DNA of 63,986 nt, the filler included, from Folioceros fuciformis (lineage: Eukaryota): the NCBI GenBank assembly GCA_049999805.1. It is 14 parts of 14 records of this genome, joined end to end, with 100 filler letters (N's around TTAATTAATTAA, not from the genome) between each part and the next. Parts side by side here need not be neighbours in the genome. Positions count along the whole stretch, not along the records: positions 12,985 to 20,745 come from JBNGIO010002144.1; 13 more parts are not named here. One strand, given 5' to 3'. A model generated the notes under the pieces. That model had not been told where the DNA came from, did no database searches, and worked only from the letters and a program-made list of their open reading frames with translations. Both the position numbers and the translations under genes were made by a program. Below are positions 3,088 to 23,420 of this stretch, in pieces (the stretch's first letter is position 1; the number at the start of each line of letters is the position of its first letter).

Positions 3088-3187
3088 NNNNNNNNNNNNN
3101 NNNNNNNNNNNNNNNNNNNNNNNNNNNNNNNTTAATTAATTAANNNNNNNNNNNNNNNNNNNNNNNNNNNNNNNNNNNNNNNNNNNN
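3088..3187. other. Artificial contig linker (44N-TTAATTAATTAA-44N). Others start at 5826, 9300, 12885, 20746, 24837, 29214, 36368, 41618, 44158, 56195, 60382, 62723
   Basis: Identical 100-bp structure 13 times; the 12-mer gives stop codons in all six frames. Confidence 0.98.
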
Positions 3188-5542: not shown

Positions 5543-6413
5543 CAGGTCCTAGACCAAGCAGGGACAGACCACAAGAGCTCATGAAGAGAGGACCTCCAAG
5601 AGCTCACAAAGAGATAGACTGGCTTCCAAAAGTGAATGACTCCTTCTTCCTACAGGCTCACCTGATCTTATAGGAGCCTCTCTCTCTCTCTGACTTCACC
5701 TCTCTCTAACTTGAGAAATATTATTTTAATAGCCTATCCGGCTGTCACCAGCCACTTATTTAGACTTCTAGCACAACCTGCCACCAATGAGCTCCTGGCC
5801 CTACCACCACAAGGATCTACCACCTNNNNNNNNNNNNNNNNNNNNNNNNNNNNNNNNNNNNNNNNNNNNTTAATTAATTAANNNNNNNNNNNNNNNNNNN
5901 NNNNNNNNNNNNNNNNNNNNNNNNNAGGGTTGAGTTGCAGATTTTGGAAGTGGAAGTGTTGAAGTGAGGAGTTGAGCTGAAGTGAGGGGCTGGAGGGTGA
6001 AGTGAAGTGCTGAAGTGAAGGACTGAAGTGCTGAAGTGAAGGTCTGAAGTGCTCAAGTGAAGTGCTGAAGTGGTGGAATGAAGTGTTGGAGTTGGAGTGA
6101 GGAGCTAGCTGAAGTTGAGGTTCTCGTTCAGCTGCGGAGGTAGCTAGCACTAGGTGCTAGAGTTGGAGGCCAGACTTGGGGCTGGAGCCTCCTCTTAGCA
6201 CTGAAGTGATTCATACTTAGAGCTGGAAATGAAGGCTGAAGACAATGCTGGAGTTCTCATTTTGTTGAGGCTGGGGTTGGTGTTGTGGTAGGAGCCGAAG
6301 ACAGGACCGAGACTTCTGACCTATTGCTGTAGCACTTGGTATATGCTAATAGATAGGGTGAGATTAGGGAGATGTAGGTGACCTTGACATTAGTTCACTC
6401 CCTTGGGAGCGAA

Positions 6414-7812: not shown

Positions 7813-9399
7813 AGCTCCCGCCGCCGCTCGCCTCCCTCACAGGTCTCCCGCTTTTAGAAACCCTAACCACACATAACCGTTTTTTTTTTTTTTTCCTGGA
7901 CATGCCAATTCACCATTGAATCCTAGTTATCTTCACCTCTCAAGACTTTGTAGATCTCAATGTAATTCTCCTAACAAGCTCACCAGTTAACTTCCTTTAT
8001 ACCAAGCTTTTATTACCTTCTTCATCTTTGCAACATAAATCTCACCCATAGTCTTCTTTGCTTAAGTACCTCTTCATCTCAAGTCCCTCTGTTAAATAAG
8101 TTTGAGACAAACAACAAAAGCCACCATCTATTCCTCTATCAACTTTCTCCCATCTTTAATTGTCTTTCTAAAGGCCTGTATCAAGCACTTCAACTTTGCC
8201 TCTCAAGTTCTCTCTAAAAGGGTTTGGTTCTCTCTAGTGTTTAACTTGAGACTAACACATTTATCATCAAACTCCACTTTGGAACTAACATTTATGGACC
8301 ATCACTACAAAGCAACTAAAAACAATTCTAAGACCCTTTAGCTCCAAGGTATTTATATATTTATGTACTCCAAGGTATTTATATATTTGTGTACTTTCTT
8401 CTCTTGAATCCACACAAGTGTCAATTCTTTTGATAGTGACAAGTTTTAAGATATTAGTATGATGATGCTCTGTGTCACGCCATCACAACGCTTTCTTATG
8501 CAGCAACATGTACAAATGCTGATTGGTAACACAAAATCTTTGATTCAATTGTTCAGTTCACTACAAGCTTCTCGGTTACAATTGCACATTGAAGACACTT
8601 AGTGCATTCCTGCTCCTCGAGCTTTCCAAGCGAACTATTAAAAGAATGTTCGATCATTCTTTCCTCATCACTATATACCTACACCATTTCGTTACCAACC
8701 ACCTGGATGATCATTCCCAAACCGTTATCAACTATCCACAAAGTTAACCACCAAAAACCGTACTCTCCAACCATTCCTTCGTGAGAACTTTTGCTTGTCA
8801 ACTGTTTCTTTAGTCAAAACGTAAGGGATTTACCCTTTCTGCAAGCATATTTATCTCAAGTAAACAGCTTACGCAGTCGCGACCTGCACACCAAGTTCAC
8901 ACAGATGCAAAACTCTAACAGACTTTCTAAGACATGACAGGATATACTTTGATACATGAGAGTTAGAGGTAGACAGTGAGAAGTCTAGCATTGAGACATA
9001 GCTATGGAGGGCTTGAAGAGCAAGCTCATCAGATTGAGTCTAGGGCAATAGCCAGTGGGGCATAGATCGCCAGACTCTTTTGTAAGTATCTGGAACAAAG
9101 AGCAGCACCTAGAGGAGATGTTCTACAAGTCATCAGTGGACGGCGGGCTACTTGGAGCCTAGAGGAGGTGTTCTGCAAGTCATCAGTGGACGGCGAGCTG
9201 TTTGGAGCCTAGTGCTGAGTCATGTGAGGTAATCTATTTGGAGCCTAATGCTGAGTCATGTGAGAGGTGATCTATTTGGAGCCTAGTGCTGAGTCATGTN
9301 NNNNNNNNNNNNNNNNNNNNNNNNNNNNNNNNNNNNNNNNNNNTTAATTAATTAANNNNNNNNNNNNNNNNNNNNNNNNNNNNNNNNNNNNNNNNNNNN

Positions 9400-9693: not shown

Positions 9694-10659
9694 CTGGGGA
9701 ATTTCTTAGGAATCCCTAGACATTTGTGGAGGATTATGGAAGGTCGTTGAAGTTGCTATAAGATTGCTGGAGAGTGGGGAACGTTGCTGGAGAACTGAAG
9801 AGAAAACGGCTGAGAAGTTGCTGAAGAAATGAGGAAGAGTGCTGAAGATTGAATACGAATTCTGGAAAATTTTTGAGAGATTCCGGAGTGTTTATGAGTA
9901 GCTGTTGTAGCTTGTTGAAATTCATGAGGGATTGTGGGAGATTGCTGAAGAATCGCTGAAGATTGGTGGACATTGCTGGAGATTGAAGCCCTTGGGGTAG
10001 GCCTGTGAGAATAATTGTGAACAGAGCTCCTCTGTGTGTTTTGTGTGTGAGGGGAGTGTTGTATGAGTGTGTGGGGAGGTGTGGCTGATCCACAAGGCTT
10101 CATTCCCCAAGGATCAGCCCTTGCATGTGTGAGGAGCATGGAATAAGCCAGCTCTGTGAGTTTGGAAGGCTTGGGCAAAAACCCGTGGGTAGAAACCCGC
10201 AGCAGTGCCTGCGCCGAAAATAATTAGTTAGGGTTTGGGGTGGGACCCACCAAGCTAGTGGAACCACGACGGCGGTAGTGGAACCACGACAGCGGTAGTG
10301 GAAACCAATACCGCAGTTGTTGTGTAACGGCCGAGGTAGTCGAGAGCCGAGGTACTACAAGCACCTCCGGGGTAGCTGAGAAGCCGGTGGTTGAAGGGAC
10401 CCCTTCCTGGTAGCCGAAAGAGCCCTTTAAGGTAGTGTAGGGTTGTGGTAGCTTAGTCGCGATGGAGGTAGTGGTAGTTGAACCAACAGGTAGTGGAGTT
10501 GGGGTAGTTAAAGTCCGACCTAGGCAGTAACTGACATTTAGAAGAAACCTCAGTTACTTGGCACAAATCATTCCCTTGGGATCGAATCCTAGTGCTATAA
10601 CGACATAGAGGGCTTGTGTGGACCTCGCAGTACCCCAGGGTACAATATTTTCCCCCACA
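9694..10659. mobile_element. Long LTR, family B (ends ...TTTTCCCCCACA), inserted into copia pol
   Basis: 10560-10659 is the reverse complement of 18485-18585. CA terminus followed directly by copia pol sequence. Confidence 0.7.
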
Positions 10660-12175
10660 ACTTCCAAGATTACCTTGTCATGAAGTGCTACTTTTACTGA
10701 GCTCACTTCTCCTCATTTTGATCTTGAAGTAACACGACTGTATGCGTCAGAACCATTCTCCACAACATAAGACTTGTTTGCTGGTCTAGATGTAGAACAG
10801 ACTCAAGTTCCTTTTACTTACCCGGATTCTGATGGTGAAGTATTGATTCTGGCTGATCTTGATGGTGGACGAGTTGCAATTGATGGTTCGCAGGCACAGG
10901 ATGCCCAACCAGCTATAAATCCTGCCAATCAAGATGACGACATTCGGTCAATTCAATTTGAAGACTCAATCAAATATGATGATTTGGTAGTAGAGGGGGT
11001 TCGTCAGGAAGTTGTGAATGAGGAGGATTTAACTGAAACTGACGTAGTAGCTCCTGTGGAAGTCCCTGAAGTTAAAACTTCTTGCTCTCCAGTGCAAGAG
11101 CTCAGGTCTCGGGACAACTGGCTTGAACCTCCATATCAAGCCCATGATTTTCGTAGACATGGAGCACATGTATCAGATCTTGATGTCCCAGATGTACGAC
11201 CAGACCCACAGAGTTATTCAGAGGCTATGTCAGGACCTAATGTTGAACACTGGAGAGTTTCCATTGATGATGAGTACAACTCGTTGATGAAGAACGGCAC
11301 ATGGGAACTTGCAGACCTTCCCCTTGGACGTAAGCCAATTACCTGCAAATGGGTTTTTAAAAACAAGCTTAAAGCTAATGGCACTATATCTAGATACAAG
11401 AGCAGACTTGTAGCTAGGGGATTCTCACAGGTTCCAGGAGTAGATTTTGGAGATACATTCTCACCTGTGGTCAAGCCACCTTCCGTCAGAATCTTACTTG
11501 CCCCTGCTGCCGAGTTTGATCTGGAGCTTCATCAAATGGATGTTTGTACGGCCTTCCTGCATGGAGAGCTTGAGGAGGCCCTGTATATGGTTCAACCTGA
11601 AGGGTTTTCAGTCAAAAGTGGCCTCATAAATTTTGTAAACTATTGAAGACAATCTATGGCCTAAAACAGAGTCCGAGAGCATGGTACAAACGTATCACGA
11701 AGTTTATGATTCAGTCTCGTTTCCTACAATCCTCGGCTGACTCAAACGTGTTTTACTTAGCTGAATCTGGCTCGTTTGTGATTCTGGCTCTGTATGTTGA
11801 TGACGCCATCCTCCTCAGGAACAGCATGTCTCAACTAAATACTGTTAAGGCTCTTCTGCGCAGTGAATTTGGGATGACGGATCAAGGCCCTCTTCGAATC
11901 TGCTTGGGCATACAGATTTTAAGAAACAGACAGAATGGTACCATAGTACTTCACCAAACTAAATATTTAAAGGAGATCTTAAAGCATTTTTACCTTGATG
12001 AAACTCAACCGGTGTCCACTCCCTTCGTCGTTGGTGAAAAGCTCACTGCAGATCAATTCCCAAAGTCTGCAGAGGAGGAAATGGAAATGGCCTCTGTCCC
12101 TTATGCAGAGGCAGTTGGGTGCCTAATCTTCTTGGCTAACTGGACTAGGCCTGACATTAGCTTCTCAGTTAGTGT
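10660..12175 (+). mobile_element. Ty1/copia pol remnant (INT-RT linker and RT)
   Basis: DPQSYSEAM...EYNSLMKNGTWELADLPLGRKPITCKWVFK; HQMDVCTAFLHG; IYGLKQSPRAW; LYVDD; TRPDISF. Confidence 0.95.
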
Positions 12176-12884
12176 AGTAGTGTTTGAGCAGGTGATTGCC
12201 CGCTATGGCTGTCCCTTGGAGTTGGTGAGTGATCGAGGCACACATTTCGTCAACGAGGTTTTCACTCACCTGGCAGAGCACTTCAACGTACAACACCGAT
12301 GAACGACCCCTTACAATCCGAAGGCTAATGGTTTGACAAAGAAAGCAAACGAACTCCTGTGCCAGATACTCAACAAGTTGACAGTGGAATATGCCTACGA
12401 CTGGGACCTCAAGCTTTATTTGGCACTATGGGCGTACAAGATAGCAGAAAGGATTACAACGCAGAGGACGCCCTAGTACCTCACTTATGGGCATCACCCG
12501 GTGACGCCAGTGGAATTTGAAGTTCCGACCCTGCGCATCTTGAGGGAGAAACGAATGTCAGTGGAAGAAAGTCAGCTGGAGAGCCTGGTCAGTTTCGTGA
12601 GGCACACTGAAAACAGGGAGCAGGCACTAGAGGCAATGTAGGAGATGCAAGCCAAGAGGAAGGAGTGGCACGATCGCAAGCTGAGGAAGTAGGATTGGGT
12701 GGGACCTAGAGATTTAGCCCTGCTGTATGACAATAGGTATATGCATTTTCCGGGAAAGTTGCATCTGAGTTGGATGGGACCATTCCAAGTAGTTGAAGTT
12801 TTCGACAAAGGCTCCATTCAGTTGCAGCAGATGGATGGGCAGCCACTGCCAACTAGAGTCAAAGGTTGGCGAGTGAAAAAGTAC
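12176..12884 (+). mobile_element. Ty3/gypsy integrase core and C-terminus, degenerate
   Basis: VIARYGCPLELVSDRGTHFVN...TTPYNPKANG...GKLHLSWMGPFQVVEV (GPY/F motif). Confidence 0.92.
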
Positions 12885-13085
12885 NNNNNNNNNNNNNNNN
12901 NNNNNNNNNNNNNNNNNNNNNNNNNNNNTTAATTAATTAANNNNNNNNNNNNNNNNNNNNNNNNNNNNNNNNNNNNNNNNNNNNGCGCAAACTTCTTTAG
13001 CCCAAAACTTTGTGGGCCCATGAGAGAATGGGTCTGTGCTGATTTCTTCATCAGCGTCTGGCAAAGACCCAAGGCCATTCACTCT

Positions 13086-13700
13086 CTACATCATGTATGT
13101 CGTGCATCGTATATCGATGTCCATCGCCTCAACATGCCTCCCCCTCTGAATAGCAGCATGAAGGAACAATCCGGATCCTGCGCAAGCATCCACAACCCAG
13201 TCTCCTTCAACCGAAAACATGTTCACTAGCATTCCCATCAACCCCAACGGCTTATGATATGGGGAGACGACCATCGAATCAACCGAGTGAAAAAGATGTT
13301 TTTTCACGACAGCCCCATGCCTTATCACTCTCGGCAGAAGAAATCCCTGATTCGCAAATAAGGCTGCTTTGGTGGTATGAGCTTCCGAGTGGACTGCACT
13401 TCCAACTATTAGGTACTCCACAGTCTCTACTGCCCCTGCATTTGGAGGAATGTTGGTCTTTTCCCAAACCAATGTTTGTATGGTGCCTTTCTTACACCAT
13501 GGCCTAAGTGCCTCTCTCGCCTTTGAGATGAGGTCAACCCCATGCATGAGGACCACTCGATAAACATTGCTACTTGTGCATTCAGAAAACCCCTTAATCA
13601 TGTCTTCAAGGTCCTCGCTAGTCAACTGCCTGTCATAGTCATGTCATATGAGACCATGAGGCAAATCAACGAACAATAGGGTATAAGGTCTCTTTACCAG
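13086..13700 (-). pseudogene. N6_N4 DNA methyltransferase domain (beta order: catalytic motif IV before SAM-binding motif I)
   Basis: DLPH(G) is in frame with ORF 13086-13625 across a single TGA at 13644-13646; HKP...VVDACAGSG motif. Confidence 0.88.
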
Positions 13701-13963
13701 AAATCCGCTCATCTCCAGAACGCTTCTCTGCATCACTTGATATTTTGTTTTTTGGTTGCTGTTGGGGACTCTGAACTCTGACAAACCAGCATCCATATCG
13801 GCGTTTGCTAGTTTATGCTTCTCCTCTTCTAATTGTTTCTAGTTCCTTGCTGAGTACGCGTAATCCTAGAACGGCTTGGGAAACAATTCCAGGTCGTTTA
13901 TATCTACAGGTTTCTACCAACAAATATCTTCATCAGCAAACTCTGTTACTTTCATTAGTCAAA

Positions 13964-14003
13964 GTGGTTGGAGTGCGCCGGTCGTCTAGCGCACTCCAAC
14001 CAC
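13964..14003. repeat. Intronic hairpin, 15-bp perfect stem, containing the 22-bp palindrome variant
   Basis: GTGGTTGGAGTGCGC-(CGGTCGTCTA)-GCGCACTCCAACCAC. Confidence 0.85.
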
Positions 14004-14744
14004 CTAACCATAGAAGTTGGACAGGATTCATGAAGCAATTGAAAGAAAACTTACCACTTTTGCAAAGGCCGTCTGGAATCGAAGAAGATTCGCGTCTTCA
14101 ATGTGCTTGGGGTATATTTGCTCAGTTTCTTCGAAGGTTGCGCATTTTAGAGCTATCTGGAACGCATGCTGTATCAGGTGAATCTTCTTCCTTTTGCCCA
14201 CCTCTGCGTCCATGTCCTTTAGTTGAAGCTTCCCCTGTCTGACCTTCTGGGTTACTGCGATGAGCATCTCCTCCCCTTTTGCACTTGCTGGAACTCCTTG
14301 AAAGGCCCCTCAAGGCCTGCCCTGCATTGCGGTAACCTTTTTTGTGGACTCATCAGCCATAGGGGTGCTATTGGAAGCTATGCCAGCTTCCCCTGGTTTC
14401 CTCTTTGCTTTCGCCCGCTTCTTCGTGCCTGTGCTCCCTCCTGCTACCTGTTCCGGACGCTCCTTCCTCTCCCACATCTTAAAAATCCTGTCAACATTTT
14501 CTCATAGGACTCCACTGCACCTTGCCACCCGATATGGTATTGTCTGCCTAGCTACCATCTTGTATACCTAGTCAGCATCCCTTGGGTCACCTGCCTCATC
14601 CGTCCTCCAGCAACCTGTAGAGATTAAACTTCCACTTCACTGGTGGCTTCTCGTCCAGTCCATGGCTCATGTAGAAAATATCCAACTTGTCATGGATGTA
14701 TCTTACTTGCTTGATGAAGCCCATCCTCTTCCGTTTGTCTGCAA

Positions 14745-15140
14745 AAACATTGTGATCTACTGCGAGGACTCGCTTTTCCTCATCCGTCAGGCCTGCATAA
14801 ACATGCCCTTCCATCCACTCGTATTTGTCCTTTGTTGGGTACATCTGATGCTTTTGCAACCCTAAAGCTTTTGCATAGCTGCGAAACAATGGTTGCCCCC
14901 AAGCACTCCCATCTGGTAACCCTACGCTGTGATCTTCTCCAGCAAAACATCTTCTTTCTTCGAACCCTGTTTCGAATCAATCATGCATAGGAGAGGTAAA
15001 ATACCTTCCTTCACAGACCCTGTCTGCATCTGCCTGACCCGGTACTTCATCCAGGCTTTGTCAACCTCACGAATCTATGCATCCGCTGTTATATAACTTA
15101 TAGGGTGGAGCATATCCACATGAAGATCAAATGTCGTCGA
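14745..15140 (-). pseudogene. ParB/Sulfiredoxin-like N-terminal domain
   Basis: GGNH-C at 14886-14900 (TGT could be deaminated CGT, giving GGNHR), followed by VYxGLTDEExxxLAxxHN. Confidence 0.7.
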
Positions 15141-15918
15141 GTGGATCCTTTTTGCATGCGCTTTTCTTCGAACAACATAGAGCTAGTCCTCATCCTGCAC
15201 AACCCTCTCCATCCGTTCAACGTCTGTCTCTACTGTTTGGGGCGGCTCGTCCTCGAAAGTAGGCCCTTGAGCCTGCCGCCTCTGTTTCTGCCTAGTAGAA
15301 GCCTCGTTGATAGGCCCTACCGACCTGCTCTTCCTCTTCAGGGGTGAAGCTGCCACTGAACCACATCAGCTGTTACATCCGATGTCCACGACAGGAAACC
15401 AGACTAGACCAAATTGCAAACCGATTAGCAAGATATGCACCTGTGGCTCTTTTTTGAGACCTCGCAGGAGGTCGTGGCTGTCTTCTTCTTCCTTTGGGCT
15501 GGGGCGCCGGTAGGCCGGCGCACCGTGTTCTGCTTCTTCCTTGGTGGCGTCACCTCAACGGGCGATTCCTCTTCTTCTTCCTGTTCATCGTGTGAGCCTC
15601 TTCCAGCATCCAGTGCCTCATTGAGGTTGTCTTCGGTGGAGGAGTAACCACCCATCTCCTTCTCTTGGTCACTGCTTAGCTCCTCCACCTCACGCAGTTA
15701 GTCTTCCGACAGCTCTAGCTGCATGCGCGGCATCTCCACCGGCCTCTTCGTCACCCTTCCTGTGCTAACACCAAAATCTGCGAAGGTCGCAATTCGTTGG
15801 CGCTCTCCGGCAATCCTGGATGCTAGGGCTTGGTTCTTCAGGACGCAATCCGCACACAATCGCAAGACAGTTTGACAGAATTGTTTGCCTCCCTGTTACA
15901 CCCACAAGATGCAAGTAA

Positions 15919-15958
15919 TTAGGGTTTAGGGTTTGCTGGGTTAATGAGCCTATATAAG
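15919..15958 (-). promoter_or_regulatory. Putative promoter of the ParB-MTase gene (TATA-like element followed by telo-boxes)
   Basis: CTTATATAGG, then AAACCCTAAACCCTAA on the - strand, about 200 bp upstream of the reading frame. Confidence 0.45.
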
Positions 15959-16018
15959 TAAGCAACAACAACTGGGATAATTAACTATTGGGTTAATAAA
16001 CTGAAATAAATGATTAAG

Positions 16019-16633
16019 CTAATCATATACTAACATCTTGCACATTCAGACAATCTGTGTTTCGTCTTCCACGCCATCAACGGATGCACAGAGAATCCAC
16101 CTAGGCCTCCTTCCCTCATTGTCCGGCAAGCCTTGGAAACCGTTAGTCCACAGAGCCATGAGCGGCACTCATGGCAAATTGTAGTCTTCTGGCTCCTCTT
16201 CGATCACTAAAAACCACTCTTTGTCTGTGTTGAACCTTTTGGCAAGGGTGTCTTCAAGTTTCTTTAGCTTCAAGCGCCCAACAAAGTTGTACGCATTTGG
16301 AATATTGGGGTTCTGACTACCACCATTGCTGCCACCCTGAGTCACATTCACAGGCACATGGTTAACATGAACCTCACTAGCTAAGCTGTTTGAGGCACGA
16401 ACGCTCCCTCCTGAATTGTCTTTCCTCAATGCGAGAGCTGTTGGCTGTGGTGTAACATCTCCTACTGTGATCACTTGTCTCCGCTAGTTTTCTCTCTCGA
16501 CAATAAGGCTAGATGCAGCGCAAGCTAAAGCTTTCGCTCCCTGTCGTGGTTTCTTCAGCCTTGATGGTGCCTCCAATACTTCCATATCAATGGCCGCATT
16601 TAGTTGCTTGTTGCTTTGCCAGCCAGCTGCCAT
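16019..16633 (-). pseudogene. Small accessory ORF (~204 codons, three in-frame stops), possible C-terminal SAM-like helical domain
   Basis: ATG at 16633 is in frame with ORF 16169-16474 and continues to TAG at 16019; FVGRLKLKKLEDTLAKRFNTDKEWFLVIEEE. Confidence 0.5.
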
Positions 16634-16934
16634 CTTCGCCTGTGCGTGAGAGGAAGTCAACGAGAAAACTTCAGAAGACTAGAGCTGATGCAGAAGCACT
16701 GAGGAATGAATTAAGCATTCAATGACAAGATTTGAAGTCCAACTGTGAAGTTGAATGTGTGTTGCCTGAAATAGGCAGAGTGTTTGAACAACGTCCTTTG
16801 CATTTATGCTAGAACAACGATTAAAGGCGTTGTTCCCGACAAACAACAGCTACTTGATTTGGTGATCAAACGTTCATATAAAAAAGGCGGCTTAATTATG
16901 CCAGCGTAACCTGTATTCAATGAATTGGTGAGTG

Positions 16935-18210
16935 ATGGTAGAATGCATCTTGCAAGGAAGCTCCTTTGCGATTAATCAGTGCAACATTGGCATGGATTGG
17001 CAGGCTTCTTCCTCAGGCGACATGGTGCCTATGAAAACATTGGAGTTCAATTCTCAAGGTAGGCGACAACTACGGTTGAAGACTGGCATTTGTTTTTTGA
17101 AGTTGAAAGTCTGATCTTCTTTGTTCGCGTCTTGCTGCTTTGTTCCCGAAGATTCGGAAGGAATCGACATCGACTTCCGACCATCTCTTGTACGTCTAAG
17201 TCTTCTGGATGGCATCCATACTCCGGCAAGCCCATTGCGAACCCAGTATCCTTTCACGCCAGCAACCAAGAAAACAACACCTCTGAAACGGAATGCGGAT
17301 CGCACAATCTTGGGCGAGGACTTTGATGATTCGGATGTAGAAGGAATTGCGAGTGGACATCAAGTACCGGGAGAATCGACCGGGGAGCACTTCTAGCCCG
17401 AAGCCAAAGGAGGGGATGTCATGGCCGTAGACTCTATAAGGACGACATGCATATCGTCCCGAAAAACATACAACCTGAAATCATCATCCGAGTCCTTGAT
17501 TGAAGTTCGTGGAGATCATCGACGCAGTCGGAAGAAAAAAATCTCGACTGTACCTGAGGAAAAGTGCTTTGAGATCCGCATTTCTGTAGATTACCTCAGA
17601 CTATGTTGTGCAAAGCAGTGTCTTAGATCCTTAGGTAAACCAAGCTTTCGAGATTTGAGATACCAATTTCTAAACCTGTGCAGGACAGAGCAAGAAATGT
17701 TTTTGCAGACCCTGTTTGATGTCAAGCGTACTTCATATGGATGCTCGACAGCGGTGGCTTTTCTCATTGGATCTGTTGAGATACGCTGTTGTTGGGATGC
17801 CTTTAGACGAGTTTTCTGTATCGGTGCGAACAGGTACGAGGCAACAAAAGAAAGAGCTTTGGATAACATTATGTGGGTGGGCTCTGTCCATGCAGAAAAG
17901 CGCACCCGGGACCACGCTATTGTTGCATGTGTTTGGATGGATCAATTATTTTGCCTCCTTGCAGAACGCATGCCAAACATTGAAGTGTACCATCTTCCCG
18001 ACTCGTACACAAAAGAGGAAACTTTTATGGAGTACAAGCAGCAAATGCAACGAGCAGAATAGTATAGTGTGTCTTACTCTTATTTCTGTCAATTGTGGGC
18101 TTCACATTTCTACAAGGTGCAAATTCCGAAGACCAACAGATTTTCGCTCTATATAATCTCGGATTACCTGAAAAGGAACATTAGAGCAGAGTCTAATAAG
18201 AAGAAACAAG
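16935..18210 (+). mobile_element. DNA transposase N-terminal region (Sola-like/DUF7869-type), pseudogenised and truncated by an LTR insertion
   Basis: Single frame across ORFs 16932-17114, 17121-17396, 17421-18062 and beyond. CCAKQC, RCCWDAFRRVFCIG, WM..AERMP..YHLP..Y, VSYSYFCQLWASHFYKVQIPKTNRFS. GTATGT donor at 18211; TATA-like element at ~16876. Confidence 0.62.
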
Positions 18211-18253
18211 GTATGTGAGCGCATTTTTTCAGTTACGTTTCAGGTAGGCATTT

Positions 18254-18446
18254 GAAGTGCGTCGGTCGATCGGCGCACTTCGCTCCATCCTTCCCTGATA
18301 AGTGCACTGGTTGACCGGCGCACATTTTTCTTCCCATTGATGTTGAGAGTGCGCCGGTCTACTGGCACACTCCCCCTGTTTTGCATCCTTTAGCTTTTCT
18401 TGTGACTGCTCTGTGGCAGGTGTGCGCCGGTAACCCACCAGTTCAC
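18254..18446. repeat. Cluster of 22-bp palindromes (consensus GTGCGCCGGTCGACCGGCGCAC)
   Basis: Copies at 18257-18278 (20/22), 18302-18323 (19/22), 18349-18370 (19/22) and a half copy at 18422-18431. Confidence 0.85.
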
Positions 18447-18484
18447 ACACTTTTTCCTTATTCTCATGTGTAGGTCTTTGCTGT

Positions 18485-19630
18485 TGTGGAGTTAAAATAT
18501 GGTACCTAGGGGTACCGCGAGGTCCAAACAAGCCCTCTATGTCGTTGTAGCTCTGGGATTCAATCCCAAGGGAATGATTTGTGTTAAACTACACAGGTTA
18601 GCATCTAAAGTCAAGTAGCACCTAAAGCTCGACTGACTCACACGCACACGTCCAGTGCTCAGACCTTACCAAGCCCCCTTACTTCTCCCACCAGATGACT
18701 CCTCGACCACCCGGTCACCCCAGGGACTACCTTCCCCTAGACTACTCTTGGTTGCCCAATGGGCTACCCCCGTTGCCTTTCGGGCGACGGTCGCCTGACA
18801 GTCTACCACTCGTGGGTCCCACTCTCTCTCTCTCTCCCTCAATTCTCTCTCTCTAGGATTTTCTCTTCCTCTAGGTCGTTCCTTCCCGACTGATTACCTC
18901 CTGCCCGTGCATCCCCTTTGGCGCTTCCCTTCCTTGGTTCACCACAAAACCGCCCTACTCACCTCATAAGCAAGCGCACGCACACATGAACAACAACAAT
19001 CTATTAGAGGCCTTCCACCCGCGGGATCTCACACCTTAGATACACCCCCTACGGTCTCCATTCAGCTTCTTCCCAGTCTCTCCAGTCTCATTGCGACCAG
19101 TCACTCATACACACCACGTCTCGTTGCACCCCACACACATTACCCACCTCGCCCCCGGGGTTTCCCCGGCTTTGTTCTCTCTTACCCCACTGCTCGGTCA
19201 CTCGCTCCTCCTCCTTCTCACACACGCGCACCCCCGTGCTCTCCTTTCTCTAGTTCTTCAATCTTCTTTCTCAGTGATGCCCCCGCTTGGGCTCCAATTA
19301 ACGTTGAGGAATGATGAGGTACTGGAGCTAAGAGAAGAGGAGTCCCTTCCACTCCGCACTCACGGATTCGGCTCCGACACCCGCACCACCCCACGTGACC
19401 ACCTCGAGGATAGCTGGGGAGCTTCTCTCCCACTCGGCGAGGCTCCTTCTCTCGATTCGTCCCTGGACCTGATCACGGAGCGCCCACCACCTACACCCGC
19501 ACCCCAGGTTGCTACGTGCGCTCGCTTGCCTGGACCTCCTGTCCAGCAACGGCCATCGCTAGGTCCCTGCAAGGTCGACTGTTCGGCTGGTTCTTGCTGA
19601 TTTCTTAGGCCTCCAAACCGGCCTCTTGTA
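18485..19630. mobile_element. LTR family B (left end TGTGGAG; right boundary approximate)
   Basis: 18485-18585 is the reverse complement of 10560-10659. Confidence 0.6.
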
Positions 19631-19760: not shown

Positions 19761-20745
19761 TTACCCATGCCGCTGGCGGCTTCCTCCTGGCCTTCGCGTG
19801 TCACCCCTTGCTGCCCCTCCTCTTGCTCTTCTGCCCCTCCGTTGGTCCGGCACATCCTCCCAGAGGATCTCCACATCATTGCTGCTGCTGCTGGACCTAG
19901 CTGGCGGCACAGGTGGGTCCCGCCGCTGTGGTCCACCACTCCTCCTCCTTCTCTGGTTGCTGAGGACAGCCACAGGCCCCCATTCTTCCCAGCGCTGGGC
20001 CTCCTCTTCCGTTAGTTCCTCCAGAACTGCCTCCTCATAGTAGTGGGGCAATCCTGTCACCCACCATCTGTAGTGGTAGAGTCCCAGACGCGTCCTCAAC
20101 TGTAGGACGTAGCCCAACGTCCCTCCTGTGCCCATACGTACATACAGAAATAGCCTTGCTCTTCCCCTTCACTCTCTCTGGCCTCATCCCGCTCCCGCTT
20201 GTATCTGTCAGCCAACTTTTGAGTCTGCTCCACGGCGGCTATCTCCATATGCCTTGGCCATTTCCTGTTGCATCTCCAGGTTAGTCTCGTGAGCCTCCCT
20301 CCCCTGAGCTAGCAGGGTCCCCTGTTGCTCTTTCAGCGCCTGCAATTCAGCCCTCGCCTCGCGCGCCTCATCCTCGGCTTGAGCCTTCTCCCTGTCTAGG
20401 ACCCGCTGCTTCTCCTCCAGCAGCTACCGCGCCATCTCCGACTCCGCCAGTTGCCTCCTTGCTTCAGCCTCTCGCTCACGAGCCTTCTCCTCCTTTCCCC
20501 AAGCCTCGGCCTCTCGCTCCGCTTGTACACTTAACCGGGTCAGGGCCCTAGCAGCCTGATCCAGGAGGTCTGCTTGGGCTTGCACCATCGCAGCAGTCAG
20601 CTCGGGTAGGTCCACCTCTTGCACCCCTCCTGTGCCCATTCCTGTCGCCGTGATTTGTCTGCCCAGGAATTCTCGCAACTTGTCCAGGTCCCCCACCTGC
20701 AACCTGTCTCTCTGAGGCCTGCACTTGAAAATGTCCTTCCACCTT
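19761..20745 (-). pseudogene. Coiled-coil accessory ORF of an LTR retroelement
   Basis: E/Q/A/R-rich heptads; EAHETNLEMQQEM..QKLADRYKRERDEA is homologous to 27511-28026. Confidence 0.6.
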
Positions 20746-23420
20746 NNNNNNNNNNNNNNNNNNNNNNNNNNNNNNNNNNNNNNNNNNNNTTAATTAATTA
20801 ANNNNNNNNNNNNNNNNNNNNNNNNNNNNNNNNNNNNNNNNNNNNCAAGGAGAGGTCCGCCCACACGCTTCCCGCCTTCTCGCGCGCACAGCAGAGCAGA
20901 GCAGAGCAGAGCAGAGGGGCCGCAGAGCAGAAAGCAGAGCAGAGCAGAGCCGAGCGGCGCAGGAGCCAGCAGCAGAAGCAGCGGAGCAGGCAGCCAGCCA
21001 GCCAGCCAGAACAGCGCAAGCTGGAGAAGAGAGAGGGGAGCGCCACAGCACAGCTTACAGGCACGGAGGCACAGGCAACAGGTCAGGTCCTGGTAAGCAA
21101 GCGAGGCACGGAGGGAAAGGAAAGGAAGCAGCCAGGGAAGGGCGAGAAGGGAAAAGCGAGGCGTGTGCCCAAGTGCAAGTGCAAGCAAAGCAAGCCCGGC
21201 CCAGGCCGGGGGCCAGAGCCGGGGCCCTGGACACCCTCGTCCCACTGCGCATCAGAAGCTCTGCCCCTGACTCTGTCGCAGCAGAGAGAGAATGCGGAAA
21301 CGGCTACAGTCATCCCATCCGGCTTCCCTTCCTCATCAGCCACCGCCGATTATCGTCCTTTTCCCCCAAGAGAAAGAGAGAGGAAATGGGCTGGCTCGGC
21401 TCGGCTCCCGCTCGCTTCTCTGCGTCTGCCCCTTCCCTGCCAATGCTGGCTGCTCTTCCCACAATTAATCCCCCTCCCATCTGTCTAATAAATATCCAAG
21501 AGGTGCCTTCTCCTCCAAGCGTGTGCGTGCGTGCGACCTTGTGCTCTGCGCCACACCCCCTTTCCTTTCCTTTCCTTCCCCCACCGCTCACACCATCGCA
21601 CATACCCGATCACAACCATCCACTCTTCAACTCACAAACAAACAAACAAAAGGCAGAAAGGCAGATATGAAGGAAAACGTGGAACAAACACCCATCCCAA
21701 CCATATTAAGAACAACCCAACTCAAAAGAAGGAAGAGAGACAAGGCATGTCCGCACAAGGCTGGAATCAAATCCACTCCAATGGGTCTCTTTCTCACTCC
21801 CTCCATGGATGTGCAGCACCGGGAGCCCAAGGTACTTGCTTCAAATGTTGCCGTGACAACATCATCACGCGAAGAATGTTTCACGAATAAGTACCTCTAT
21901 GACAGGAAACTGACGAACCATACGGCCTCATGTGTGCGTGACATGCTCCCATGCTTCCATGGTACCTAGGACAGTTCAGGAGGTCACAAGGAAGATATGG
22001 TAGACAAACGGACCCAATACAACCGACTCTTGCACAACTGACAACGGTTGTCTCTTCTTTCTCAATTGACAATAGCTCTCCTCTCCTGCAACTCCTGCCT
22101 GCCTACCAGACTACCTCTCGAATGAATGAATACATGTGCTCCAACTGCAAATTGCTTTCTCTGCATGAATGAAGGTTGTCCTAGCAAGCGCTTGTAACGT
22201 CTTTGTTCCTCGACAGACACGGTACTAAGGCCTCATTGTCTCTGTTCCGCATTGTCTCTATTCTTGGACAGACAAGGTACCCAAAGCTTCACATGATGCA
22301 TGACGTGGTGCTCTTGGGGACAATGTTCAAATATCCTTGCTTCGAGAGTCAGAGTCACGCGGTTGGACAACCAATGCCCAGACCAAGTGTAGAAAACGAC
22401 AAACGTGAGCCCCTAAGCAAGGACACAATGAGCTCTACACCTAGAGCTGGTTTGCAAGGACAAGATAATAGGTGAAAGCAGCATCACATCTAATCAAAGA
22501 AAGATTATTAATAACTATTTAATCAATGATGGATTAGCATGAGTGACACTCGGCCTAAACATACATCGTTGTTATTGAAGAGCACAGATGTATGCAGCAT
22601 ATACCCCGCTCCTATAACTACATTAAACATCATAATGACAAGATATCATTATTTAAGAGTTTTAGAGATAGCCTTTTAATTTTGATCATGCTGTTTGATA
22701 TACGTTATCTCGGACAAGTTGTATGGATAAGCATGGACCATGCTTCTCTTGGGAGGGCCGGGCCGGGCTGGGCTGGGCTGGGCCATCCTCCCGGCTAGCT
22801 GTGAGAAATTCGGATGCGATGGATCTACGATCTAGAATCCGGCAGGGGCGAGGGCGATGGCGAGGGATAAAATACGTATGGGACGATATCCAATACGTTG
22901 CGCAGGTAGGTAGCGGTAAAAGAAATGTGGTGGAAGGGGGCCTGGGAGCTTCTAAGAAATATCGTATGACGTGTGGAAGCACAGATGAAGCAAAGGGGGG
23001 GCTCCAACACAGCGCAGTGCGCACGCTGGTGGTCGCAAGGACGCCGGCAAGCAGCGTGCCATGGTCGGTGCGCGTGACCTGTGATGGCCAAATCCGGTTG
23101 CCGCTGCCTGGACGCGATCAAATTTAGCCCGCCAGCAGCCACATCATGCATGCTTCAACAATTGCAGCCTCGAAGCCCCTTCCCTTCCCTTTTTTCTGCT
23201 GCTGTGTCTTCTCCCCCCCTTGGCGTCGCGTCGCCATCTCCACCCGGTCCGTAAGCGCGTCCTCGTCACTTGCCGCAAACCCAGTGGCGAGCAAGTTGCC
23301 CGCATCACGGCTCTCCCGCTGGGAGGCCCGGGTGAACGCGGCGCGCCGTGCCGTGCCGCGCCGCGGAGTGATGTGGTGCGGTGTGGCGTGGCGTGGAGTG
23401 GCGGAGACTAGACATCGGGA

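Follow-up and report, generated by a model that had tools for sequence, protein, structure and literature searches.

The window analysed here is a 63,986-nt stretch of DNA (filler included) from Folioceros fuciformis (assembly GCA_049999805.1), in which a palindrome of 22–24 bp recurs within and beside two divergent genes of a putative DNA transposon, one of DUF7869-type transposase character and the other encoding a DNA methylase. Thirteen identical linkers (3088–3187, 5826–5925, 9300–9399, 12885–12984, 20746–20845 and eight more), each of the form N44-TTAATTAATTAA-N44 with 12 letters between two runs of 44 N, split the window into 14 contigs of 1.2–11.9 kb, and any feature that crosses a linker is therefore a joining artefact. 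The entire finding is located on a single contig of 7.8 kb, JBNGIO010002144.1 (12985–20745), which is bounded by the linkers at 12885–12984 and 20746–20845.

The window was scanned with the 22-mer GTGCGCCGGTCGACCGGCGCAC, allowing up to three mismatches and using 100 dinucleotide-preserving shuffles as the null, as well as with its 10-nt half-site, allowing up to one mismatch. The 22-mer matches at five positions, 13973, 15502, 18257, 18302 and 18349, with 3, 3, 2, 3 and 3 mismatches, respectively, and has no match in any of the 100 shuffled windows. The half-site matches eight times against 1.14 expected, a count reached in no shuffle, and all eight matches of the window fall within 13973–18431, including an exact half-site at 18422. 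A consensus built from the commonest letter at each position across the five copies is a perfect palindrome. It is lengthened to 24 nt (A...T) at both ends in three copies and at the left end alone in another. The motif is real and non-random. The earlier note, made from the same DNA, had placed copies of 19–20/22 and a half site at these positions, had described their changes as mostly C>T or G>A and had seen no copy elsewhere in the window. The positions are reproduced by the scans, nine of the 14 departures from the consensus are indeed C>T or G>A, and neither the 22-mer nor the half-site is found elsewhere in the window, the last being a weak control because the remainder amounts to ~55 kb in 13 repeat contigs unrelated to this one.

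The first copy (13964–14003; core 13973–13994, 19/22) forms the perfect stem of 15 bp described previously, in which 13964–13978 pairs with 13989–14003 around a loop of 10 nt, and lies inside a putative intron of the methylase gene. Its DNA fold reaches −19.7 kcal/mol (z −7.1), and it is the sole GC-rich hairpin among the three with a stem of at least 10 bp that a scan of the entire window found. The second copy (15502–15523, 19/22) resides within the open frame of the methylase gene, where it forms part of a basic low-complexity linker (...PPRKKQNTVRRPTGAPAQRKKK...), in keeping with its earlier assignment to coding sequence. The remaining copies are grouped beside the transposase exon, with the first of them starting 47 nt past the end of the exon at 18210, and occupy 18257–18278 (20/22), 18302–18323 (19/22), 18349–18370 (19/22) and 18422–18448. 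The last of these has an exact left half-site (18422–18431), a decayed right arm and a lengthened centre; with 7/10 positions of the right arm still matching, the half site of the earlier note appears to be a full copy, the sixth, that has decayed.

A stretch of 4.5 kb thus holds six copies. Two of these fall inside the methylase gene, and the group of four (18257–18448) is ~1.6 kb upstream of where that gene putatively starts. The start-to-start spacings within the group are 45, 47 and 73 nt, and the spacers are alike in pyrimidine richness only. No tandem repeat is detected by TRF at 18150–18650, and no longer homology was found between the group and the remaining window; 18257–18448 is a cluster of sites and not a duplicated unit. 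The unrelated flanks therefore identify the motif itself, rather than a longer duplicated segment, as the recurring entity. Direct repeats or target-site duplications are seen beside none of the six copies when the 30-nt flanks are inspected by eye. Outside the organism, the exact 22-mer is absent from viral contigs, occurs twice in metagenome contigs (in a bacterial terminator-like hairpin and in a contig-end hairpin in 72% GC DNA) and is present as six single copies, none of them clustered, in prokaryote genomes within DNA of 66–75% GC; these outside matches are due to chance.

The methylase gene is a multi-exon accessory pseudogene that extends over 13089–16633 on the minus strand; its putative ATG is at 16633, and it is interrupted by frame changes and by six or more in-frame stops. 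Its C-terminal open reading frame (ORF; 13089–13643, minus strand) harbours an N6_N4 methylase domain (PF01555, E 3.2e-7), which scores 31 bits against a curated cut-off of 26.7 bits. The methylase assignment of the earlier note is upheld by further comparisons: the ORF scores 0.96 in the protein atlas, where PF01555-only clusters account for 26/30 matches, and it matches PDB sequences of the M.RsrI class (E 0.005–0.04), DNA methyltransferase families of PHROGs and, by tblastn, 65 phage records. Motif IV (FVDLPHG) precedes motif I (VVDACAGSG) within the ORF, an order characteristic of the beta class of methylases. Upstream of the ORF, coding-like frames run to the putative ATG at 16633, and the interval at 13839–14054 (minus strand; 216 nt, GT-AG, phase kept, stops in all frames) is a putative intron that holds the first palindrome copy, consistent with the intronic location proposed earlier. 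A word-index search for homologues among longer proteins, which constitutes weak evidence, gave no matches for the methylase ORF or for a 126-aa exon of the gene. Two telomere-like units of the plant type (TTAGGGTTTAGGG) are present at ~15921–15935, inside an AT-rich putative intron of the methylase gene.

Divergent from the methylase gene, a putative transposase gene of the DUF7869 type is represented by its N-terminal exon(s) on the plus strand at 17115–18210, with in-frame stops at 17394–17396 and 18060–18062. The segment 17397–18212 (plus strand) has 62 protein relatives at E ≤ 1e-3 (best 2.3e-18). Among the 16 of these 62 that were scanned with Pfam, DUF7869 is found downstream of the matched region in three, a Ulp1 protease domain also in one, and nothing in 13. 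When 11 of the 62 relatives are used in tblastn, the matches in the window are confined to 17403–18212, and the catalytic part is therefore absent from the window. Homology to the relatives stops at 18212, next to a GT at 18211, in line with the splice donor that the earlier note had put ahead of the palindrome cluster. Stretches of LDN...ENKN and GHTH..DQ are invariant among the three DUF7869 proteins and would fit an acidic catalytic core, and it is on account of the conserved D/E motifs in this alignment and the repeat context that the transposase label of the earlier note is retained as putative. A fold model of one DUF7869 relative (P0005, from a three-row alignment) is too poor for use, with a predicted local distance difference test (pLDDT) score of 38, and a profile of the three proteins against PDB sequences recovers only the SENP/Ulp1 part (E 0.028). 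In the window copy, two Cys of a conserved C..C motif are replaced by Tyr. The word-index search of the transposase exon against longer proteins, again weak evidence, returned no matches, and the available parts of PMC5751038 and PMC12730594 contain no signature of Sola1 or another superfamily that is comparable with the window element.

One of the relatives, P0002, which is 42% identical in the exon and has no relatives of its own in viral contigs, carries a read-through tail that ends ...QQVCAGPLV, and the window frame over 18418–18432 reads QVCAG across the half-site. This agreement is a single five-residue coincidence with a chance probability of ~1e-3 by rough estimate, and we consider it a lead that may favour constraint on the half-site. 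The two genes also share a perfect 15-nt inverted repeat, with one arm in a methylase exon (14737–14751) and the other in the transposase exon (17696–17710); the 15-mer lies on the sense strand of both genes in different frames, and ~0.03 such repeats are estimated to occur by chance in the contig. The observed/expected ratio of CpG is 0.46–0.72 over 13001–17000 (the methylase part) and 0.8–1.0 over 17001–18500 (the transposase exon).

Public contigs from three DNA runs of the same organism, all from one sample (X1–X3), were mapped onto 13050–18650, where 1330, 1346 and 1060 contigs, respectively, align at 80–99% identity, most of them at 80–95%. The summed contig depth in X1 and X2 is 103–594 in all 28 bins of 13050–18285, including the intergenic part. 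This even depth across both genes and the region between them therefore indicates one multi-copy unit, as far as depth shows, with no single contig covering both genes, and to that extent substantiates the previous claim that the two genes belong together. Other genomic copies are also seen around the palindromes: contigs cover the spacer 18324–18338, one contig bridges 18387–18403 and continues for 94 letters or more to either side, and four contig joints fall exactly at palindrome borders (13995>18345, 13997>18348, 18372>18256 and 18373>13956), with 15, 17 and 40 letters between the units at the three joints for which letters are listed. From these joints it follows that palindrome units adjoin with other spacers elsewhere in the genome. 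The earlier note had named absence of the motif from other copies of the element as an outcome that would speak against it; rather, palindrome clusters are present in other genomic copies, with differing spacers.

Both genes are pseudogenes in the window copy. The stop at 16169–16171 (TGA) in the methylase gene is Trp (TGG, coding strand) in every other contig mapped there, and position 18060 within the transposase stop (TAG) is C, giving CAG, in all other contigs mapped to that place. In run X3, C>T and G>A places are in strong excess (166 and 280, respectively) and many places are converted in X3 alone, which is the pattern of a bisulfite-type library; a cytosine-methylation data set for this organism thus probably exists. 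No contigs of a further run, X4, presumed to be RNA, mapped to the region, an outcome with no bearing on expression.

We propose, with a probability of about 0.35, that a protein encoded by the element, most likely its methylase accessory protein, binds the palindromes and would then methylate the element. The palindromes would accordingly represent cis sites of one multi-copy DNA-transposon family that carries a beta-class N6-adenine/N4-cytosine DNA methylase gene divergent from a DUF7869-type transposase gene. The binder would be a dimeric DNA-binding module within one of the element's proteins, for which the long N-terminal part of the accessory protein is the first choice. Such a protein could dock on the 24-bp palindromes, both at the four clustered sites next to the transposase exon and at the two single sites in its own gene, and could then methylate the DNA of the element around these sites, thereby marking the element in a manner that may serve regulation of its own genes or escape from host silencing. 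The perfect palindromic consensus of 22–24 bp has the form expected for the site of a symmetric dimer and therefore supports the protein-binding reading, as do the occurrence of the motif beyond chance, its confinement to the element, the clusters in other copies and the algal precedents; binding of any protein to the sites, the identity of the binder and the effect of methylation are what we infer. The binding-site interpretation is reasonable, but was anticipated by 2025 papers on algal transposons.

In red-algal Plavaka (as well as Zisupton or Fanzor-linked) elements, PAG2 combines a PF01555 methylase with a SET domain and PAG3 combines a ParB-like domain with a 2-oxoglutarate (2OG) oxygenase, inverted-repeat tandem arrays adjoin PAG3 in the Plavaka elements, and the accessory protein is proposed to bind and modify its own element (bioRxiv 10.1101/2025.02.11.637652). 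As far as the available part of that text describes them, these elements share with the window element a PF01555 accessory gene in a DNA transposon and a palindrome cluster near the accessory gene. In contrast, no SET, 2OG or ParB-like domain is detected in the window element, its transposase is of the DUF7869 type rather than EnSpm/Plavaka, and two of its sites are inside the methylase gene, with the arrays being compared by description and not by repeat sequence or unit length. The Ectocarpus element Sola1-1_Ec32 (21.5 kb, with 282-bp terminal inverted repeats and a 4-bp target-site duplication) carries a gene for a 1104-aa ParB-like plus N4C/N6A methylase protein on the strand opposite the transposase, and it has been suggested that such Ectocarpus proteins bind and modify their own element (PMC12477816). 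On the evidence of the accessible portion of this paper, the two elements are alike in being multi-copy and in having the methylase accessory gene divergent from or opposite to the transposase gene, and in both the accessory gene is long, multi-exon and of similar size, with the methylase domain at the C-terminus. The window element differs in that it has no confirmed ParB-like domain or established transposase superfamily, and in that it possesses palindrome sites, of which none is reported in that portion of the Ectocarpus text (PMC12477816). Adenine methylases fused to a ParB helix-turn-helix have also been described in chlorophytes and chytrids (Iyer et al., PMC4738411, seen in part). Beyond the red-algal, Ectocarpus and Iyer et al. 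papers, no further reports were found in the literature, as far as its texts were available. The element is a candidate new case of the recently described methylase-carrying algal transposons for which self-binding has been proposed.

In a more specific proposal, which we regard as rather improbable, a ParB-like clamp fused to the methylase would load at the palindromes and spread from them, writing N6-methyladenine or N4-methylcytosine over the element, with the site being conserved across diverged elements as the P0002 lead might indicate. If true, this would amount to parS/ParB-style self-marking on eukaryotic nuclear DNA. Palindromic sites of the ParB family, such as chromosomal parS, the sopC repeats of the F plasmid and the KorB operators of RK2, are clustered or dispersed and measure ~13–16 bp. 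By general description, the window element resembles these systems in having several copies of one perfect palindrome, some coding and some clustered at ~45-nt spacing, as well as in the proximity of the sites to the gene of the presumed binder, but its sites are longer (22–24 bp), it is a eukaryotic nuclear transposon and no ParB domain was found in it. Indeed, the ParB fusion suggested in the earlier note could not be recovered: Pfam detects no family at E ≤ 10, ParB or otherwise, in seven stop-free pieces upstream of the methylase domain or in an 86-aa read-through of the upstream methylase exons (with X at one stop), the searches of the methylase upstream region in PHROGs and PDB sequences gave nothing relevant to ParB, the protein atlas likewise gave nothing relevant for this region (best score 0.79), and the AlphaFold single-sequence model of the 126-aa exon is unusable (pLDDT 47.6). 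The sole hint of ParB is a GEDHS stretch recognized by eye. The absence of ParB is, however, not established, because two stops and a frameshift disrupt exactly this upstream part; in the red-algal case, the ParB-like domain had itself been assigned with an HHpred E-value of 0.29, according to the portion of the preprint available (bioRxiv 10.1101/2025.02.11.637652).

The lack of a recognizable DNA-binding domain weighs against the proposed binding, and several further observations point in the same direction. Among phage methylases, the four closest that were inspected stand alone, with lengths of 236–267 aa, and the intergenic promoter region at 16680–17100 contains no palindrome site. The mapped depth drops to 62, 150 and 33 (X1, X2 and X3) over 18286–18472, so that many copies of the element must be without this part or variable in it, and the contig evidence does not place the first and second palindrome copies in other members of the family. 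Furthermore, the palindrome sites are 9–14% off consensus and thus about as diverged as the window copy overall, and the mutation bias is alike in the two, with C>T or G>A making up the 9/14 changes in the sites and 14/26 private changes of the window copy elsewhere (the 26 best-supported places, against all other contigs of X1 and X2). Selection on the sites is not evident, and they are decaying neutrally with the rest of the window copy.

The lack of any sign of selection and of a DNA-binding domain would also be compatible with a selfish or structural micro-repeat that has no protein partner and has spread through slippage, recombination or gene conversion within the family, comparable to the mobile GC-rich palindromes of organelle genomes. 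One copy of the palindrome being coding and another lying in a putative intron, both with unrelated flanks, would fit such a repeat, and the spacers and order of the units vary among genomic copies, with joints at palindrome borders as for recombination-prone units. We nevertheless consider a micro-repeat unlikely, if not strongly so, given that no target-site duplications accompany the copies, that the motif is absent from the ~55 kb of other repeat contigs and that the half-site is possibly conserved in P0002, a relative with only 42% identity in the exon. Binding by the transposase rather than the methylase protein is another, somewhat less plausible scenario, in which 18257–18450 would be a subterminal repeat region contacted by the Cys-rich N-terminal domain of the DUF7869-type protein. 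Many DDE transposons carry several subterminal binding motifs, the cluster adjoins an exon with a conserved CC..C N-terminal region, and the mapped depth, which is even to 18285, falls over 18286–18472 and gives way to another repeat from ~18494, such that the element or this copy of it could end there. A subterminal location is at odds, however, with the two sites deep within the methylase gene and with no terminal inverted repeat having been found on the incomplete contig, its left part included, the only long inverted repeat being one that joins two contigs. Moreover, the cluster follows the GT donor exactly where the homology of the relatives ends, which fits an intron, and the contig that bridges 18387–18403 extends to ~18497.

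Since the element has its own beta-class N6A/N4C methylase, the palindromes could instead be chiefly substrates of that enzyme and operate as a methylation-sensitive switch, for example by coupling transposase expression or activity to replication, as in the Dam control of IS10/Tn10 in bacteria. The consensus does hold nested short palindromes of a type recognized by such enzymes, one of them a central TCGA in which both strands have an adenine, yet the typical targets of these enzymes are 4–6 bp, a site of 22–24 bp is not required, and the central TCGA is intact in only one of the five copies; a role as substrates is therefore improbable. Highly improbable is a function of the palindromes as RNA hairpins in the pre-mRNAs, with a splicing or small-RNA role. 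The first copy and the cluster are in putative introns, the first copy folds strongly, and C>T changes leave G-U pairs in plus-strand RNA, but the second copy is exonic, copies four to six fold no better than shuffles (z −0.96, −2.0 and +0.44) and compensatory double changes are not seen. Rfam returns a single match far below threshold (E 0.61, 22 bits against a gathering score of 66 bits), and a 15-bp stem is short for a small-RNA precursor.

Beyond the cluster, the depth over 18473–18650 jumps to 5082 and 7054 (X1 and X2). This region contains a boundary repeat of ~100 nt (18494–18599), which does not belong to the element family and has a far higher copy number, its depth being 10–50 times that of the methylase element, with many contigs breaking at 18514 and at 18583–18599. 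An inverted second copy with 85% identity is present on another contig at 10546–10651, and the repeat may be a module resembling a short interspersed nuclear element or a miniature inverted-repeat transposable element, or else a piece of a very abundant retroelement. The 106-nt inverted repeat formed by these two copies was rejected as the terminal inverted repeat of the element, since its arms are on different contigs and belong to a far commoner repeat. A Helitron 3' hairpin was likewise discarded, no Rep/helicase being present. In the right part of the contig (18600–20745), no Pfam family scores above cut-off, and a charged, coiled-coil-like open frame is located on the minus strand at the right end (20208–20745) in GC-rich DNA (54–59%) unlike that of the element. 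On the fourth contig of the window (10771–12884), separate from that of the palindromes, a Copia-type reverse transcriptase (RVT_2, E 1.6e-35 and 6.6e-28) abuts an integrase-core fragment of another type at ~12170–12300, which looks like a junction of two retroelement fragments.

Two papers of 2025 propose that some algal transposons encode proteins that can bind the DNA of the transposon and mark it chemically, which is still a proposal. On present evidence, the Folioceros element is a decayed example that introduces no new principle. What it adds is a concrete candidate site, namely a 24-bp palindrome, clear in its consensus and laid out in several copies, beside a confirmed prokaryote-type methylase gene, and it thereby bears on whether eukaryotic transposons use a bacterial-style logic of site plus binder for self-control or protection.

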